Assembly (NCBI RefSeq): GCF_003790525.1
Contig: NZ_CP033634.1
Origin: Escherichia coli
GTDB taxonomy: Bacteria; Pseudomonadota; Gammaproteobacteria; Enterobacterales; Enterobacteriaceae
Reading direction: 5' to 3' (one strand)
DNA length: 64,000 nucleotides
The notes under the pieces were generated by a model, which saw only the letters and a list, made by a program, of their open reading frames with translations, was not told where the DNA came from and did no database searches. A program made the position numbers and the translations under genes. This document shows positions 10,770 to 19,126 of the stretch, piece by piece; position 1 is the stretch's first letter, and the number at the start of each line of letters is the position of its first letter.

Positions 10770-11392
10770 AGAATAACCTCTTTCACTAACGCTTCGATTT
10801 CTTGCTGGGCTTTATCATTTTGCGTTTCAAAAATTGTCATTGATTCGGCCCAAGCATCTCGATGTGCTTTACGATCACATACCCGGGAGTTTGCCAGATG
10901 CATTTCAGGGTAATCCTTAAGTACTTCAGCTGCCTCATTGGCTTCATTAACAAACATATTTGTGGGCGTCATGTTTAAAACGAGATATCCCCGAACATCC
11001 TCATTAAAATCTTTTGCTGCTGTAAAAACGGAGCATGTATGAGGCACAACATCCAGGTCCATCTGAGATGGGCGCAAAGGAGAAATGAATACATCTGCGG
11101 CCATCAATCCACTACGCATTTCTGCGCTATCACGGCCAGCACAGTCTGCAATAACAAAATCATAGGATTTTTCGTGTTCCTTTAACATGGCTTTGATGTT
11201 ACCTGTCGCGCCTGTAACCGGAATATGAGGGAGATCTTCAGGGCGATTGTTGTACCAGGTTAATACTGATTTCTGGTCATCTGCGTCGACAATAATCACT
11301 CTATTGCCTAGTGACATCAGATACGCAGCTATAGATACCGCCAGTGTACTTTTACCTACCCCACCCTTTTGACTACCTAATACTATTATCAT
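10766..11392 (-). CDS. parA: ParA-family partition ATPase (small type Ib, no N-terminal HTH)
   Basis: Deviant Walker A KGGVGKST at residues 9-16; 208 aa. Confidence 0.9.
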   Translation of the reverse strand: MIIVLGSQKGGVGKSTLAVSIAAYLMSLGNRVIIVDADDQKSVLTWYNNRPEDLPHIPVTGATGNIKAMLKEHEKSYDFVIADCAGRDSAEMRSGLMAADVFISPLRPSQMDLDVVPHTCSVFTAAKDFNEDVRGYLVLNMTPTNMFVNEANEAAEVLKDYPEMHLANSRVCDRKAHRDAWAESMTIFETQNDKAQQEIEALVKEVIL

Positions 11393-11403
11393 TATAGCCT
11401 CAT

Positions 11404-11430
11404 ATTAAGTTGTTAAGTTAACAACTTAAT
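11404..11430. promoter_or_regulatory. Palindromic operator-like site in the parA promoter region
   Basis: ATTAAGTTGTTAA/GTTAACAACTTAAT near-perfect palindrome 12 bp upstream of parA start; a related copy lies at about 11470-11495. Confidence 0.5.
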
Positions 11431-11519
11431 ATTGCCATCTGAACGCGAATCATGCAATTATTTTTGTTATATTAACAACTTAACAAGTTATTAAGTATTT
11501 GATTTATAGATTAATTAAT

Positions 11520-11574
11520 ATAACAAGATAACAAGATAACAAGATAACAAGATAACAAGATAACAAGATAACAA
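11520..11574. repeat. Upstream centromere-like iteron array (parC1-like): six to seven tandem GATAACAA copies
   Basis: taacaagataacaagataacaagataacaagataacaagataacaa. Confidence 0.7.
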
Positions 11575-11595
11575 TATTATGGGTGGATTACATAT

Positions 11596-12774
11596 TCATA
11601 ACTGGGCTACTGGCAAATCTGTCCATCTGGTGGTATACGCAGGAGAAAGCATTTCCCGTTTCATTTGCCATTCAGGGGCGGTTCCTCGCCCCGCAAACCA
11701 CACTTTCCCTTTTCCAGACTGGTTCAGTTCATCGAGTGTTTTCATTAACTTTTCGCTGTTTTTACGGGGCTGGATCTCATCAAATAATCCCGGCTGCGCT
11801 ATACCCGATGGTGTGAAATCAGCCAGCATGACTCCTGCCTTCATATAGCGGTACCCTTCACGCCAGACATGGTTTAAGGCTCTGCATGCGGCGGCAATAA
11901 TGTCCCGGCTGTCCTGTGTGGGCAATGGAAGCTTTTCCACAGCGGCATTGCTGTAACAGGGTTCTTTTACTGCAAAGGGGGATGTCCGTACAAATGTCGT
12001 CACCTGCCGGCAATACTGACGTTCCCCACGTAGTTTCTCTGCGGCCCGCTCTGCATACTGAACAACAGCCTGGTGCATGGCATCTTTGTCTGTGATTCGT
12101 TCACCAAAACTGCGACTACAGACAATCTGCTGTTTTGCCGGTGGTGCTTCTTCCAGGGATATGCAGGACTCGCCGTTGAGTTCGCGTACCGTACGCTCAA
12201 GAATGACGCTGAAGTTTTTCCGGATGAATGCCGTGTTAGCCTGCGCCAGCTGCAGTGCTGTGTTAATACCCAGCGCATTCAGCTTTTCCGTCAGTCTGCG
12301 TCCTACTCCCCAGACCTCACCAACTGGCTGCAGCCCCAGTAGCTTCAAGGTCCGATTACGGTTTTCTGCCGTCAGCGCGACCACTCCGGAAAACTGTGGC
12401 CATTGCTTTGTTGCCCACTGTGCACTTTTAGCCAGCGTTTTTGTAGGCGCAATGCCCACCCCCATGGTGAGTCCTGTCCAGCTCTTTACCTGTTCCCTGA
12501 GCTGATGACCAAAAACCTCCGGAGAGATGCAATGATTTATCCCCCGCAAATCAATGAACATTTCATCAATTGAGTAGGGCTCAACTGCGGGAGAAAGCGA
12601 CTCCAGAACAGCCATAACCCGTTGGCTCATGCTGTGGTACAGCGCATAATTGCTGGAAAATACATGTATTTTCTTCTCCAGGCGCATTTGTCTCACCTGA
12701 AACCAGGGCTGCCCCATTCTGATGCCAAGGGCTTTTGCCTCCGGGCTGCGCGCGATCACACAGCCATCGTTATT
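11596..12774 (-). pseudogene. impB: impB/umuC-like error-prone DNA polymerase (Y-family), 3' portion lacking the first 33 codons
   Basis: Translation from NNDGCVIARSPEAKALGIRMGQPWF... aligns with UmuC/MucB residues about 32 onward; upstream in-frame sequence is unrelated and stops. Confidence 0.85.
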
Positions 12775-13182
12775 CACCGTTACACGTTTTACACCCTAAA
12801 ATGTTATGAAAAACCTTTCTGAACAAAGCCTGTAGCCTGATTTGTGTAATTCTCATCGATATGAAGCAATAAGTTGAGAATTTTTTAATATGGGGCTCAT
12901 TAATTCTCAACAATTAAGTGTGGCATAACATTAATGTCTAAAACTTCTCAGTCTCGCATGCCAGATTGGTTCGTAGTCGTCGAGTGGTGATTGTGACAAT
13001 AAAGATCGAAACTTATGCTTTATCAACATGGCTATCTTAGATAAGTGTGCCAACAAAGTTTGAAACACACTTTTGCCCCATTATGAGTTACAACCCAAAG
13101 TTCAAACAGTGATGTTGAGGTAACTTTGATATACAAAAAGTAATGAACAGCAAAAGATAAAAGCTGAGCCAATTTGTTCACA

Positions 13183-14271
13183 CTATTCAGTTAGCATGAG
13201 CTTTGCTTTAAGAAACGTAAGTTTGATGTCATCAGTTTTGGTGAACTTGAACTTACCGTCAGTAGAAGCGTTAAACCTTTCAAAATAGTATTCAAGTAGC
13301 GGATCGTACCTGCCACCGTGAACCCAAGTGTAGAACTTACCAAGTTCATAACGTAACTCTTTATCAAGTTCAGATCTTATTCTCAGCTCACTATCGTTTG
13401 CTAGTTCAACGATGTTCATTTCTTGAAGGTTCGTCTTAATCTCTTCAATCAGAGGTAGGAGGGATTCTTTATACTTATCAGCCAATGGTACAAGGTCAGC
13501 GTCAGTTACTTCCGCTTCAAAAATCATAATCAGGTCGTCAATCTCCCCGTTATAGTAATCGTTATCTAATCGTTTTTCTGACTCAGTACGAAGAACATAG
13601 AGTTGTTCTAAAGGATCTAATTTAGTCTCAATTTTTTCTTTTGAAAGTTTGTGTTGATACTCAACAAACAGCGTTTCAATCCTATCAGCAATAACATCAA
13701 GATACTCATATCGAATTCTGAGAAATTCCAACAGCTCATTGATATTGAGGTTTAACGTTAGGTCTTCTTTACCCACATCTCGACTGTACAAATGAACACT
13801 CAAATCGCCAGTGTTGAAATGACTTTGAAATGGCCAACTTGCGAAACGCTTTGAGTTTTCTTGATTCAGATTTACGGGGTGAGCACCGAAACACGCCCTG
13901 ATAGTTTTAAAATAATTATTATCATCTTCATTAGCGAAGAGGCGATCTTTGAAACATTTCTTTTCACCATAAAACGGATCTTTCTTATCAGTTATAAACA
14001 CTCGATGGAGTTGTTTTATTGACTCGAAAATAAGGTCTATTGAAGAGATCAGAGAGTAGACCTGCATACATCTACTATCTATGTTCTTGTCAAACTCAGG
14101 CGCATTTTCTAAGTGGCGAACAGAGACAGAGATCCAATCCATAGCAGAGCAAACGAGGTTAAAAAGATTCTTACCACCTTTATCTTTGTATATTTGATAC
14201 ACAAAGCTAGAGTTTGAGTTAACTAAGTCTCGAAAATCACTGATTTTATCGTCACTAACAACGTTTCTCAT
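13183..14271 (-). CDS. Hypothetical protein, 362 aa, AT-rich cargo gene divergent from the PIN-like/AbiH-like pair
   Basis: Long uninterrupted ORF in low-GC DNA; contains an R-x5-H motif (RACFGAH) that could be HEPN-like, but no family confidently recognised. Confidence 0.65.
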   Translation of the reverse strand: MRNVVSDDKISDFRDLVNSNSSFVYQIYKDKGGKNLFNLVCSAMDWISVSVRHLENAPEFDKNIDSRCMQVYSLISSIDLIFESIKQLHRVFITDKKDPFYGEKKCFKDRLFANEDDNNYFKTIRACFGAHPVNLNQENSKRFASWPFQSHFNTGDLSVHLYSRDVGKEDLTLNLNINELLEFLRIRYEYLDVIADRIETLFVEYQHKLSKEKIETKLDPLEQLYVLRTESEKRLDNDYYNGEIDDLIMIFEAEVTDADLVPLADKYKESLLPLIEEIKTNLQEMNIVELANDSELRIRSELDKELRYELGKFYTWVHGGRYDPLLEYYFERFNASTDGKFKFTKTDDIKLTFLKAKLMLTE

Positions 14272-14706
14272 TCTCTAATCGCCTTCTAACCAATTGAAAA
14301 TATTATGAAGAATGGCAAAAATGATAGTGATAGTTCTTCAATTCTTCAACTTCTTTTTTGATTTGAAGTGAAGTGATACGCTGGGTTTTGTCACTTAGTT
14401 AGATTTGAACGATGAGGATCTCTAGCCAGTTGTATTGCTAGGCATTATCCGAAGACAAATAGAAGAACTGAACCTCGAAGTAACTTTTATCCTAGGACGT
14501 GCTGAAGCTGGTCTCCGCAAACTTGTGATCTAGGCCAACACGCCTTTGCCCCCAAAACATTTAAAGCTATCCCTCATCACACCTTGCTAACTCGTTACTT
14601 GCCCGAATTTTTGTAATGAGCCAATATGCTATTAGTTGGTTATCCACTTAATTGTTTTATCAATTTATTTGATGACAATTTACACCATGTGTTCAAGGTA
14701 TTGATT

Positions 14707-15807
14707 ATGGAATTACAGACAAGGCTAGTTTTTATCGATACAAGCGCTTTTGAAAAGAAAAACTATCAATTTGGGCAACACGCTCTTGGTCGTCTTCAAG
14801 AACTAATTGAGGATGAGAAAATCCACTTGCTCATTACTGATGTGACAAGGAAAGAGATCGACTCCCATCTCAAACACAAATCTGAAGAAGCAGCTTCTAT
14901 GATAAAGAAGATGCAAAGAGATGCGATGTTCCTAAGAAACACCCCCGACCTTGATTGTCATGGCATCTTCACCAAGATTAAAGGTGATGATATTTATGCT
15001 GTTATCAGTGAAAAATTTGATGATTTCGTCGAAAACGGCTACGTCGAAACAATTGATGTAAGCACTGTTAACCCTCAAGTTGTATTTGATGCTTACTTCA
15101 ACAACCTTCCTCCTTTTGGCAAAGAATCAAAAAAGCACGAGTTTCCTGATGCATTTGCGCTAGAAGCTATTAAACAGGTGAGCTTGGCTAGAGGATATTC
15201 AGCCTATATCGTTAGTGACGACGGCGATATGAAATCATTCTGTGAGAAAGAAGATAACTTCATTCATCTTGAAAATGTCGATGACCTAATTGACTTGATT
15301 GTTCGAAGCGACAAAGCGTACGAAGAACCAGCCAAATTTGCTGATGAAATATTCGAACAACTCCTAGAACAAATCAAAGCGGATGCCCTGCAAGCTCTCG
15401 AAGATGGCGAGTTCAACTATGAAAACGCAGATCCTTTCGATGAGACTATCAATTCTATAGAAATCAACTCGGTGAATGTTGGGAAGAAAAACTTACAGAA
15501 TGTCGATGCCGAGTGGGCTGAATACGAAGTAGAATTTGAGGTGGTTGTTACGGCAGATTATCGATTCTCAGATTATGACCGTTCACCTTGGGACCCTGAA
15601 GACAAGCAATATGTATTCGTCTTGAGTAATGAGTCAACAGTAAAACACAAAGAAACATACACTGCCCACATAACACTTGCCTATACCGATGGATTAAAAG
15701 CTAACGCATACATTGAAGAGTTTTACTTCCAAGATACATATTTTGAGCTGACTGATAATGACTCCGAAGTCATTAGCTTCAAAGAACTAGATATCAACGG
15801 TGAATGA
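14707..15807 (+). CDS. PIN-like domain protein (DUF4935-like), 366 aa
   Basis: N-terminus MELQTRLVFIDTSAFEKKNYQF... resembles PIN-like DUF4935 openings; stop TGA at 15805-15807 lies one base before the start of the next gene. Confidence 0.65.
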   Translation: MELQTRLVFIDTSAFEKKNYQFGQHALGRLQELIEDEKIHLLITDVTRKEIDSHLKHKSEEAASMIKKMQRDAMFLRNTPDLDCHGIFTKIKGDDIYAVISEKFDDFVENGYVETIDVSTVNPQVVFDAYFNNLPPFGKESKKHEFPDAFALEAIKQVSLARGYSAYIVSDDGDMKSFCEKEDNFIHLENVDDLIDLIVRSDKAYEEPAKFADEIFEQLLEQIKADALQALEDGEFNYENADPFDETINSIEINSVNVGKKNLQNVDAEWAEYEVEFEVVVTADYRFSDYDRSPWDPEDKQYVFVLSNESTVKHKETYTAHITLAYTDGLKANAYIEEFYFQDTYFELTDNDSEVISFKELDINGE

Positions 15808-15808
15808 C

Positions 15809-16277
15809 ATGAAGCTATATGTAATAGGTAATGGCTTTGATGTTCATCATGGCCTTGACACTAGGTATACATCTTTTGGGCTTTATCTCAAAAATAACTA
15901 CTGGGAAACTTATGAACTATTGCTCGACTATTACGGGTTTGCTGACTTAGACCCAGATTTTCCAACAACAATGTCAGACCCTTTATGGTCTGAATTTGAA
16001 ACGAGTATGTCACTGCTTGATAAAGATTCAGTTTTGGAAGCAAACATGGATGCAATGCCAAACTATTCTTCAGATGACTTTCGAGACAGAGACCGATACA
16101 CGCTTGAAATTGAGATGGAGCGAATACTTGGCCTTCTAACCACTGAACTGTATAAAGCATTCAAAGAGTTCATTTTGGCTGTACAGTTTCCTCAGTTTGA
16201 TCACAGCCGATCAGTAAACATTGATAGAGACGCTGTTTACCTCACATTCAACTACACAGATACGCTTTCTCAATACT
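15809..16277 (+). pseudogene. AbiH-like abortive-infection protein, N-terminal 156 codons, truncated by IS2
   Basis: MKLYVIGNGFDVHHGLDTRYTSF matches the AbiH family N-terminal signature; reading frame runs into the IS2 left end at 16278, so the ORF-track tail to 16327 is IS2-encoded. Confidence 0.7.
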
Positions 16278-16368
16278 TAGACTGGCTCCCTGAATCTCCA
16301 GACAACCAGTATCACTTAAATAAGTGATAGTCTTAATACTAGTTTTTAGACTAGTCATTGGAGAACAG

Positions 16369-16734
16369 ATGATTGATGTCTTAGGGCCGGAGAAACGCAG
16401 ACGGCGTACCACACAGGAAAAGATCGCAATTGTTCAGCAGAGCTTTGAACCGGGGATGACGGTCTCCCTCGTTGCCCGGCAACATGGTGTAGCAGCCAGC
16501 CAGTTATTTCTCTGGCGTAAGCAATACCAGGAAGGAAGTCTTACTGCTGTCGCCGCCGGAGAACAGGTTGTTCCTGCCTCTGAACTTGCTGCCGCCATGA
16601 AGCAGATTAAAGAACTCCAGCGCCTGCTCGGCAAGAAAACGATGGAAAATGAACTCCTCAAAGAAGCCGTTGAATATGGACGGGCAAAAAAGTGGATAGC
16701 GCACGCGCCCTTATTGCCCGGGGATGGGGAGTAA
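16369..16734 (+). CDS. insC: IS2 OrfA (InsC)
   Basis: [56 protein letters not shown]... Confidence 0.9.
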
Positions 16735-17597
16735 GCTTAGTCAGCCGTTGTCTCCGGGTGTCGCGTGCGCAGTTGCACGTCATTCTCAGACGAACCGATG
16801 ACTGGATGGATGGCCGCCGCAGTCGTCACACTGATGATACGGATGTGCTTCTCCGTATACACCATGTTATCGGAGAGCTGCCCACGTATGGTTATCGTCG
16901 GGTATGGGCGCTGCTTCGCAGACAGGCAGAACTTGATGGTATGCCTGCGATCAATGCCAAACGTGTTTACCGGATCATGCGCCAGAATGCGCTGTTGCTT
17001 GAGCGAAAACCTGCTGTACCGCCATCGAAACGGGCACATACAGGCAGAGTGGCCGTGAAAGAAAGCAATCAGCGATGGTGCTCTGACGGGTTCGAGTTCT
17101 GCTGTGATAACGGAGAGAGACTGCGTGTCACGTTCGCGCTGGACTGCTGTGATCGTGAGGCACTGCACTGGGCGGTCACTACCGGCGGCTTCAACAGTGA
17201 AACAGTACAGGACGTCATGCCAGGAGCGGTGGAACGCCGCTTCGGCAACGATCTTCCGTCGTCTCCAGTGGAGTGGCTGACGGATAATGGTTCATGCTAC
17301 CGGGCTAATGAAACACGCCAGTTCGCCCGGATGTTGGGACTTGAACCGAAGAACACGGCGGTGCGGAGTCCGGAGAGTAACGGAATAGCAGAGAGCTTCG
17401 TGAAAACGATAAAGCGTGACTACATCAGTATCATGCCCAAACCAGACGGGTTAACGGCAGCAAAGAACCTTGCAGAGGCGTTCGAGCATTATAACGAATG
17501 GCATCCGCATAGTGCGCTGGGTTATCGCTCGCCACGGGAATATCTGCGGCAGCGGGCTTGTAATGGGTTAAGTGATAACAGATGTCTGGAAATATAG
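16692..17597 (+). CDS. insD: IS2 OrfB (InsD), DDE transposase; expressed with OrfA by programmed -1 frameshift
   Basis: ORF overlaps orfA in the -1 frame; contains the IS3-family DDE region ([17 protein letters not shown]). Confidence 0.9.
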
Positions 17598-17705
17598 GGG
17601 CAAATCCAGTGATATCCAATTCATTCAGTCTGTAAACACAATAGTGGACATTCTCACATTGTCAAACGTGTATAGTTAGAGAGTGGAAGTAAAAGTGTAT
17701 GGGTG

Positions 17706-17804
17706 GTTATTGCTGAGTACGATGACCGGTTCGTTGCGAAGGTCCGGGCGGAAAACTTTTTCACATGAGGCGTAGAAACTGTTGATATCAGCCAGTGCAA
17801 ACAT
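17706..17804 (-). pseudogene. impB: impB 5' fragment (first 33 codons) separated from the rest by the 4.9-kb insertion
   Basis: Minus strand reads ATG TTT GCA CTG GCT GAT ATC... = MFALADINSFYASCEKVFRPDLRNEPVIVLSNN; start overlaps impA stop (TGATG). Confidence 0.8.
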
Positions 17805-18241
17805 CAGCGTAACTCCCGCGTCCTGTGTATCACGTGAGTGACAACACCAAAAATACAGATGTTTTCCGGATACAGTGTGCGGAACTCCGGGCTGTCTGAA
17901 ACCGGCTCCAGTGCCGGGCGTGGGCGCAACAGCAGTCGTTTGACGGTGAACTCACCATCGATCTCAGCGATAACGATGTCCCCGTGTTGTGGTTTTTCGG
18001 CCCTGTCCACTACCAGCAGATCACCATTCTGCACGCCAGCCTGGTTCATCGATTCACCGCTGGCGCGCAGAAAGAAGGTGGCTGCAGGTCTGCTGATGCA
18101 ATAGCTGTTCAGATCCAGTTCCTGCTCAGCATAATCAGTGGCAGGCGAAGGAAAACCGGCCAGGCAACGATCGGCAAACAACGGTCGCACGTAACTGTCA
18201 TTGCCTGAAGGGTCAGCCGGACGGTGATAAACGGTACTCAT
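17804..18241 (-). CDS. impA: ImpA (UmuD/MucA-like, LexA-type S24 peptidase fold)
   Basis: 145 aa; FPSPATDYAEQELDLN and ASGESMNQAGVQNGDLLVVD align with UmuD. Confidence 0.9.
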   Translation of the reverse strand: MSTVYHRPADPSGNDSYVRPLFADRCLAGFPSPATDYAEQELDLNSYCISRPAATFFLRASGESMNQAGVQNGDLLVVDRAEKPQHGDIVIAEIDGEFTVKRLLLRPRPALEPVSDSPEFRTLYPENICIFGVVTHVIHRTRELR

Positions 18242-18486
18242 GCTGCAGGCAGCCAGCTGTCGTCCTGCCAGATTTCTTCCAGCAGAGACAGGATACGTTC
18301 TTTATCCTTGTCGTTGCGGGCTCCTGTGACAGATACAGACGGGGCGCTGCCCTGGTCTATACGCAGCCAGATTTCCGGGTAGTGTGGTTTCAGACGTCGT
18401 TCGATTTCATTCTGTAGCGCCTGAAGTGTGCCTGATTTGAGGTTTTTTGTGCTCTGGCGGTCGAAAAGAATTTCAATGCGGATCAT
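18238..18486 (-). CDS. impC: ImpC, small first gene of the impCAB operon
   Basis: 82-aa product MIRIEILFDRQSTKNLKSGTLQALQNEIERRLKPHYPEIW...; RBS GGGAG upstream; overlaps impA start by 4 bp. Confidence 0.8.
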   Translation of the reverse strand: MIRIEILFDRQSTKNLKSGTLQALQNEIERRLKPHYPEIWLRIDQGSAPSVSVTGARNDKDKERILSLLEEIWQDDSWLPAA

Positions 18487-18509
18487 GTTCTCATCTCCCT
18501 TTTCTTTTG

Positions 18510-18525
18510 CTGTATGTATATACAG
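18510..18525. promoter_or_regulatory. LexA box (SOS operator) upstream of impC
   Basis: CTGTATGTATATACAG fits CTGT-N8-ACAG, 24 bp upstream of the impC ATG. Confidence 0.75.
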
Positions 18526-19126
18526 TATTCTAATAACTGAATCCACACACAGTCAAATGTCATTATTGTGACTAAAAAACGCTCAATTCTCTGAGGGTGT
18601 GGCTGTATGCCTGCTGTGGACTGCTGTGTCCAGCTTATCCACAGCATTTTGCGCACGGTTCTGTGAATAAAATACCTGGTTACCCAGGCCGTGCCGGCAC
18701 GTTAACCGGGCTGCATCCAATGCAAGTGTGTCGCTGTCGCCGGCATCCTCACCAGGTCACTCAGCAGTCAGGGAGAAAAATGGCGGATGAAGTATGACGG
18801 AGACGGTCGGGCAAGTGCCCGTTTCTTTTCCGACAAAGGATGTCGCCGTGCTCCTCTTTTTACTGCGCCGGCTGACGCGGCGCGGCATAAACGCTGCCTG
18901 TGGTCAGTGTCCCGCGTCCGGCGGGCACGGGACGGGCGCTTTTACCGCTCCCGGCTGGCACCGGTGACAGTGTACGCCAGCCCGTCGCCCTTTTCTGATG
19001 AACGCCCTTCAAGCCGCTTTCGCGAATGAAAGGGACATCTTATTCGGTCTTTACGCTGGAGAGTTACTTTGGAAGACTGCGTCAACACGATGATAAGCGT
19101 ACAAAGCCATTGTTAAGGGATCCTCT

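Follow-up and report, generated by a model that had tools for sequence, protein, structure and literature searches.

The DNA analysed here, a stretch of 64,000 nucleotides referred to below as the window, carries an impCAB operon that is read from the minus strand. Its three genes encode a DinI-like protein, a UmuD-like self-cleaving protein and a Y-family polymerase; they are preceded by a promoter with a predicted LexA operator, and the polymerase gene is present in two pieces. The features of the operon are given below in the direction of transcription.

18551-18556, minus strand: -35 hexamer TTGACT of the imp promoter, from a consensus scan
18535-18554, unstranded: weak candidate for a second LexA box, AACTGAATCCACACACAGTC, extending from the spacer into the -35 hexamer
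18527-18532, minus strand: -10 hexamer TAGAAT, from a consensus scan
18508-18527, minus-strand reading: main predicted LexA operator, the 20-mer TACTGTATATACATACAGCA, with its core 16-mer at 18510-18525
18494-18499, minus strand: ribosome-binding site GGGAGA, 7 nt 5' of the impC ATG, read directly from the sequence
18238-18486, minus strand: impC, 82 aa, DinI-like, intact (Pfam DinI, E=3.6e-18)
17804-18241, minus strand: impA, 145 aa, UmuD-like S24 self-cleaving protein, intact (Pfam Peptidase_S24, E=2.7e-23)
17706-17804, minus strand: 5' fragment of impB, 33 codons including the region of the catalytic Asp6, 100% identical to residues 1-33 of intact ImpB
11596-12774, minus strand: 3' fragment of impB, residues 34-424, with 97.7% amino acid identity to intact ImpB in tblastn

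Genes and promoter of the imp operon

The order of a DinI-like gene, an S24 UmuD-like gene and a Y-family polymerase gene, all on one strand and with coupled starts, is retained in the window, with the polymerase gene in two pieces. The start of impA and the stop of impC share the sequence ATGA, and the boundary between impA and impB reads TGATG; overlapping boundaries of these two kinds are typical of translational coupling. ImpC showed 100% identity with its counterpart from an intact operon, and matching plasmids annotate it as a DinI-like family protein. ImpA differed from the intact-operon copies by one substitution, Q27L. It matched UmuD chain 8gmt_B (E=2.5e-35), and its residue G29 aligned with the first residue of processed UmuD' (1umu). 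When six UmuD-like proteins were aligned, A28-G29, S64 and K101 were invariant, and ImpA carries the Ala/Cys-Gly cleavage site together with the Ser-Lys dyad of UmuD-like proteins. The substitution falls at the P2 position of the predicted self-cleavage site, which was occupied by L, Q, A or P in the alignment; as this position is naturally variable (Q/A/P), Q27L is probably harmless.

The imp promoter is of the sigma-70 type in our scan, with TTGACT and TAGAAT separated by a spacer of 18 nt and 10 of the 12 consensus bases matched; the promoter and terminator scans used throughout are consensus matches alone. The 16-mer CTGTATGTATATACAG at 18510-18525 was the sole occurrence of CTGT-N8-ACAG in the 64 kb, a loose pattern for which chance predicts 0.87 occurrences per window and which is not significant alone. 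Extended to the 20-mer TGCTGTATGTATATACAGTA (18508-18527), the site showed two mismatches relative to the E. coli LexA consensus TACTGTATATATATACAGTA and was the sole match in the window at three or fewer mismatches, a level that none of 100 shuffled sequences reached. Relative to the impC ATG (18486), the nearest base of the 16-mer lies at -24 and that of the 20-mer at -21. The predicted operator shares its first base with the end of the -10 hexamer and spans the expected transcription start, overlapping the promoter. The weak box is situated at -48 from the impC start, as is the corresponding site of the IncI plasmid pTF2. The original prediction had placed a LexA operator 24 bp upstream of impC and considered impC and impA to be intact; the first statement holds for the 16-mer on the minus strand, and the second is confirmed by the two full open reading frames, one identical to and the other a single residue away from the copies in intact operons.

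Plasmid pTF2 provides the closest functional point of reference. Its published boxes have heterology index (HI) values of 1.60 for the main site and 13.49 for the weak site at -48, and proteomics of a constitutive-SOS lexA mutant showed its ImpC, ImpA and ImpB to be 21-fold, 9-fold and 2-fold up, respectively (PMC12211044). The main operator 20-mer, the weak box and both spacings (-21, -48) are identical in the window plasmid. Given this identity of sequences and spacing, we infer that ImpC and ImpA would be expressed in an SOS-dependent manner here as well.

The split polymerase gene and the remnant of SE-SenBL10

The break in impB lies exactly after codon 33, and the remainder of the gene runs from 12774 to 11596, so that the two halves are 4.9 kb apart (4,931 bp, 12775-17705). 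The intact gene reads ...CCATC GTTATT GCTGAG..., and the insert has GTTATT on either side. The open reading frame of the 5' piece runs into the insert and reaches a stop at 17676 after 42 aa. Its N-terminal segment aligns with the beginning of the catalytic core in Y-family polymerases of solved structure, and the 3' fragment contains the Pfam domains IMS, IMS_HHH, IMS_C and DUF4113, with the IMS match beginning at profile position 31. In Y-family polymerases, Asp6 and Asp101/Glu102 are all required for catalysis. The SIDEMF motif (Asp101/Glu102) is located on the 3' fragment and Asp6 on the 5' fragment, and since these residues have been parted, both fragments must be inactive as polymerases. 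The catalytic carboxylates do not lie in one polypeptide, and the operon is consequently a disrupted member of its class. A 393-aa open reading frame starting from GTG at 12777 was considered as an active truncated polymerase and rejected, as it has no Shine-Dalgarno sequence and the N-terminal catalytic segment is absent.

The insert was compared with SE-SenBL10, a strand-biased circularizing integrative element (SE; Mob DNA 2023, PMC10214605, Additional file 8, entry 13). SE-SenBL10 was described from Salmonella enterica strain BL10 and is given as 10,159 bp long with a GC content of 38.1927% in the table of SEs with defined termini (PMC10214605); its reference copy is chromosomal (NZ_CP024619.1, 1982483-1992641). 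The full-length insert in plasmid pSCU-106-1 measures exactly 10,159 bp with 38.1927% GC, and p113k, a plasmid of the name-giving strain BL10, has a copy of the SE in impB. The equal length and GC content, together with the copy on the BL10 plasmid, identify this insert as SE-SenBL10 or an essentially identical element. Likewise, the SE survey counts the 616-aa and 146-aa proteins of pSC138 among the orthologues of tfp and srap and classes this plasmid as SE-positive (PMC10214605). On the basis of length, GC content, host strain and core-gene accessions, the segment 12775-17705 of the window is a remnant of SE-SenBL10 or of an essentially identical element. Its parts are listed below from the intA-proximal to the intA-distal end, together with the flanking 6-bp sites.

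17706-17711, unstranded: native 6-bp target core GTTATT (codons Asn32-Asn33), beside the intA-proximal terminus on the attL side
17609-17705, minus strand: surviving 97 bp of the intA-proximal SE end, terminus CACCCATACAC..., collinear with the full copies in pSC138 and pSCU-106-1
16278-17608, plus strand: IS2, 1,331 bp, with its transposase genes on the plus strand and antisense to the imp operon, from the IS2 annotation in pGZM7d
12775-16277, unstranded: SE cargo and intA-distal end, terminus CACCGTTACAC... at 12775, 99.6% collinear with pSCU-106-1
15800-16277, plus strand: truncated AbiH gene of the cargo (Pfam AbiH, PADLOC AbiH)
14626-15807, plus strand: open reading frame of the PIN_12 protein of the cargo, annotated as a CDS at 14707-15807 (Pfam PIN_12)
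13183-14271, minus strand: 362-aa open reading frame of the cargo
12769-12774, unstranded: 6-bp SE footprint GTTATT, beside the intA-distal terminus on the attR side

In the full-length copies of pSC138 and pSCU-106-1, impB' leads, without a change of strand, into genes encoding a 509-aa tyrosine recombinase and proteins of 616, 663 and 146 aa. After these recombination genes come the AbiH and PIN_12 genes on the opposite strand, the 362-aa open reading frame and finally 'impB. The core genes intA-tfp-intB-srap are present in the full-length copies of pSC138, pSCU-106-1 and pNDM1_085031. They are missing from the window, which has IS2 in their place, and the window therefore holds an SE remnant and not a functional member of the family. 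The imperfect inverted terminal motifs C and C' were found at both ends (CACCCATACAC... and CACCGTTACAC...), sharing 9 of their first 11 bases. Regarding the cargo, PADLOC recognised AbiH alone among its proteins, the PIN_12 and 362-aa proteins matching no known defence-system model, and an Rfam scan of 11000-20500 gave no match.

The window is collinear with the full SE from the distal end to 16277 and again from 17609. Between these points, IS2 takes the place of 6,559 bp of the element, comprising the 3' half of the AbiH gene, srap, intB, tfp and intA of the full-length copies. The pentamers beside IS2 differ (ATACT and GTGAT), and there is no target duplication. A simple insertion of IS2 was rejected, as no 5-bp duplication is found and 6.6 kb are missing relative to the full-length copies; the unequal pentamers point instead to an IS2-associated deletion. 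As the recombination genes have been deleted, the SE remnant cannot move by itself. The 97-bp SE end still contains the orphaned promoter-like site of intA (TTGACA-16-TATTGT at 17665-17638), which now faces IS2. The original prediction of an impB gene split by a cargo element, with loss of the Y-family polymerase from the plasmid, was correct regarding the break and the loss, the catalytic residues being divided between two fragments. The description as a cargo element stands as far as an insertion is concerned, but the inserted element is not intact, consisting of a decapitated, catalogued SE plus IS2.

The published SE model places the native 6 bp of the target beside the intA-proximal terminus and, beside the distal one, a "footprint" of 6 bp that derives from the donor site. 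The proximal 6-mer was GTTATT in every plasmid examined. The distal 6-mer was GTTATT in the window, pGZM7d and pSY3626C1_124k, ATTATT in pSCU-106-1, pUR5084 and a Shigella dysenteriae plasmid, and ATTGTT in p113k, all of them with an identical impB flank. In pSC138 it is also GTTATT, with a different outer flank, and GTTGTT occurs as well among the plasmids compared. The pair of GTTATT sequences around the insert was therefore rejected as a classical target-site duplication: with the distal 6-mer variable and the flank constant, the apparent duplication is an SE footprint. The arrangement follows the footprint rule, with the native 6 bp at C/attL and the donor-derived 6 bp at C'/attR. At least three different footprints at one impB site indicate that insertion into impB took place repeatedly and independently. 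A Klebsiella plasmid has the SE at these codons too, equally oriented and following an unrelated umuD, and a Providencia umuC likewise has it at these codons. One codon position is thus used in impB, Klebsiella umuC and Providencia umuC, and the target of SE-SenBL10 is the conserved SNNDGC-coding stretch of umuC-family genes.

Distribution and comparison with related systems

The distribution was obtained from PLSDB plasmid records. Of these, 2,277 had impCA with the promoter at a coverage of at least 80% and 2,273 had full-length impB, while SE junctions in impB were found in about 14-16 plasmids. With roughly 2,270 intact records against about 14-16 split ones, the operon is normally intact and only rarely split by the SE. 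The segment 17600-18700 was 100% identical to the E. coli plasmid pGZM7d (chicken, China, IncFIA), in which the genes are annotated, and window positions 5248-29328 matched this plasmid at 99.83%. All of this has been recorded before: the operon with its operator and SOS induction, the element with its target preference, and also this exact arrangement. Some IncF plasmids (e.g., pJJ1887-5) retain only 'impB and 282 bp of the distal SE end, cut by IS5.

Among intact operons, that of the IncK2/Z plasmid pXDL-2 encodes an ImpC identical to that of the window and an ImpA differing by one residue. The gene order is also that of the impCAB operons of IncI-type plasmids (TP110, pTF2) and of the Shigella virulence plasmid, those of TP110 and the Shigella plasmid having reportedly been described by Lodwick (1990) and Runyen-Janecky (1999). 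In contrast to these operons, the window has an impB split after codon 33 by the remnant of a mobile element, and the Q27L change in ImpA. Likewise, the umuDC operon of E. coli (DNA polymerase V) and mucAB of pKM101 are LexA-repressed and encode an S24 self-cleaving protein and a Y-family polymerase; the imp operon differs from both in its additional, DinI-like first gene and, here, in its broken polymerase gene. Compared with SE-SenBL10, the copy in the window is devoid of all four core genes and of half of the AbiH gene, making it an immobile remnant.

Regarding other elements with a similar target, umuC has been described as a hotspot for tmexCD-toprJ elements bearing tyrosine-recombinase "int" genes, and a separate preprint assigns the tmexCD-toprJ clusters to the SE family. 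These SEs share the umuC-family target with SE-SenBL10 and differ in lineage and cargo (an efflux pump versus AbiH/PIN). The papers on them do not state their orientation relative to umuD. In plasmid pHNAH8I-1, the SE core was absent from two 50-kb segments, and an intact umuDC is located elsewhere on the plasmid.

Origin of the arrangement and alternative readings

Taken together, the locus is very probably a classical SOS-controlled impCAB operon in which impB was inactivated by SE-SenBL10, the element being decapitated afterwards by an IS2-associated deletion. In undamaged cells, LexA would repress the imp promoter through the strong operator at the transcription start and the weak box at the -35 hexamer, and upon DNA damage the RecA*-stimulated cleavage of LexA would free the transcription of impC and impA. 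On this reading, SE-SenBL10, a tyrosine-recombinase element, integrated site-specifically at impB codons 32-33, within the SNNDGC motif and in the orientation of the operon, with the loss of impB. A later deletion associated with IS2 took intA, tfp, intB, srap and half of the AbiH gene, fixing an immobile scar of 4.9 kb. The plasmid would still make ImpC (a RecA modulator) and ImpA (UmuD-like) in an SOS-dependent manner, without a polymerase of its own. A recent remnant in decay, and not a new regulatory design, is the best reading of the arrangement.

The original prediction further held that SOS-responsive expression extends to whatever is transcribed into the insertion. The path is open, since the scan of the minus strand predicted no terminator-like site between impA and the far end of IS2 (to 15993), but there is next to nothing along it to express other than a 42-aa peptide and antisense RNA. 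Read-through past impB' is plausible; it would yield the 42-aa ImpB' fusion peptide and, beyond it, antisense transcripts of the IS2 transposase genes and then of the AbiH'/PIN genes. As translation ends at 17676, Rho-dependent termination is likely, and the RNA antisense to IS2 would probably be cut short by Rho.

The open path has a different significance in the full-length copies, where Pimp-impC-impA-impB' (the 42-aa open reading frame) is followed after about 70 nt by intA-tfp-intB-srap, all on one strand and with no terminator-like site from impA to the end of the SE. This organization would suit an element that lands sense-oriented in the 5' ends of umuC-family genes so that the LexA-repressed promoter drives intA-tfp-intB-srap and copy-out becomes inducible by DNA damage, the window being a fossil of such an arrangement. 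The equal orientation behind an unrelated umuD in Klebsiella and the repeated insertion recorded by the three or more footprints at one impB site are consistent with this possibility, and SOS and LexA go unmentioned in the host-range paper on SEs. However, the asymmetric attachment site of any site-specific recombinase fixes the orientation of insertion, and equal orientation is thus no proof of selection for read-through. The SE also has its own promoter-like site 5' of intA, and related SEs occupy other, non-SOS targets. Distant IntA homologues on IncHI2 and pAQU1 plasmids were considered as convergent support for a coupling to SOS and set aside, as they belong to other SEs and are not located in umuC. 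We regard this explanation as unlikely for the locus; the genes that would be driven are gone from the window, and the idea has no bearing on the present function of the plasmid. The broader proposal that copy-out of umuC-targeting SEs (SE-SenBL10 and perhaps others) is coupled to SOS through the umuDC/impCAB promoter, with the window as a decapitated fossil, is put forward as speculative and appears doubtful at present.

It is also conceivable, if improbable, that ImpC and ImpA have been kept under SOS control by selection because they are useful without ImpB, for instance as a damper of the RecA co-protease and as a modulator or partner of chromosomal polymerases. Two hits to the DNA downstream have left the promoter, both open reading frames and their translational coupling unharmed, and the known biology of the DinI and UmuD families makes polymerase-independent roles plausible. 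Against this, identity with intact operons is 99% or more across the region, which leaves too little time for decay and renders the intactness of impC and impA uninformative on selection. The IncF plasmids that lost impCA and kept the 'impB scar alone argue against strong selection, and in pTF2 neither SOS levels nor conjugation differed significantly when impA, impB, impC or all of impCAB had been deleted (PMC12211044). Finally, it is extremely improbable that the palindrome arose by chance or that the promoter is inactive, with no SOS regulation here: the loose pattern could well be met once in a window of this length (0.87 expected), but the 20-mer is within two mismatches of the consensus, no shuffle (0/100) matched at three or fewer, the site lies exactly at -10/+1 of a 10/12 promoter, with an SOS-type operon whose first gene starts 21 nt further on, and the identical pTF2 site goes with 9-21-fold SOS induction.

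With its polymerase gene knocked out, the plasmid no longer contributes an error-prone polymerase of its own, and the SOS response of the host probably still gains a DinI-like and a UmuD-like protein from it. As these SEs land sense-oriented just 3' of a LexA-controlled promoter, DNA-damaging antibiotics could in principle stimulate their movement, a possibility that the literature, as far as we found, does not address. More generally, SE-type elements land repeatedly in the umuC-family genes of resistance and virulence plasmids, and annotators should therefore expect split impB and umuC genes and SE scars in them.

Deletion within the element and its surroundings

The copy of SE-SenBL10, the strand-biased circularizing integrative element inside impB, now contains an insertion sequence.

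16278-17608, IS2, flanked by the non-matching pentamers ATACT and GTGAT

IS2 replaced 6,559 bp of the element, comprising the 3′ half of the AbiH gene, srap, intB, tfp, and intA. Together with the unequal flanks, this replacement indicates an IS2-associated deletion, not a simple insertion.

A second insertion sequence precedes the imp promoter by about 570 bp and adjoins a short annotated hypothetical ORF (18787-19029).

About 19100-20300, ISShdy1 (IS110 family), transposase ORF at 19127-20143

At the corresponding place, intact-operon plasmids carry a hypothetical ORF and, after it, a DUF1281 gene. In pSCU-106-1, which bears a full-length element, ISShdy1 likewise directly follows the corresponding short ORF, and this shared position suggests that the insertion sequence and the imp region split by the element probably travelled together. 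On the other side, the impB 3′ fragment ends in a stretch of ~50 nt (11596-11650) that diverges at the nucleotide level from the intact-operon plasmid pXDL-2 and from pSCU-106-1, while still coding for the C-terminus. A recombination or mosaic junction was noted at about 11650, beside a ParA-family gene.

ImpA also carried a substitution, in the P2 residue of its A28-G29 site, where self-cleavage is predicted.

18161-18163, ImpA codon 27 (Q27L)

Among the plasmids inspected, Q27L was confined to the lineage of the window and pGZM7d, an E. coli plasmid identical to it over 17600-18700; other UmuD-like proteins have Q, A, or P at the equivalent position, as natural variation.

Cargo of SE-SenBL10 and of distant elements

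12775-16277, cargo of SE-SenBL10 (full-length counterpart at 2091-6340 of locus L004)

The cargo genes encode an AbiH abortive-infection protein, cut off in the window at residue 175 of 319, a PIN_12-domain protein, and a 362-aa ORF that matched neither Pfam nor PADLOC. Together they may form a small anti-phage module. On two IncHI2 plasmids and pAQU1, distantly homologous IntA proteins (24-51% identity) mark other elements of the SE type, sited outside umuC, whose cargo consists of restriction-modification genes, blaGMA-1, or CBASS-like genes (SAVED, E1/E2-like and JAB proteins, and a nucleotidyltransferase).

Decay states and footprints of the insertion

Two further plasmids hold additional decay states of the same insertion. 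In the IncF plasmid pJJ1887-5 (L006, 4407-5756), which lacks impCA, the 3′ part of impB remains with 282 bp of the distal end of the element, cut by IS5; in Providencia pC131 (L005, 11955-16188), a single deletion removed the core of the element along with the 5′ end of umuC and some of umuD.

Six-nucleotide footprints were compared among the window and loci L004, L013-L017, L008, L005, and L006.

12769-12774, 6-mer adjoining the intA-distal terminus
17706-17711, 6-mer adjoining the intA-proximal terminus

The proximal 6-mer was GTTATT in all plasmids compared. The distal 6-mer varied (GTTATT, ATTATT, or ATTGTT) across plasmids with identical impB flanks, and was GTTGTT for the copy in Klebsiella umuC. 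The pattern matches the published footprint rule, namely a native target 6-mer at the proximal end and a donor-derived one at the distal end. A variable distal and a constant proximal 6-mer imply that the element entered umuC-family genes several times independently.
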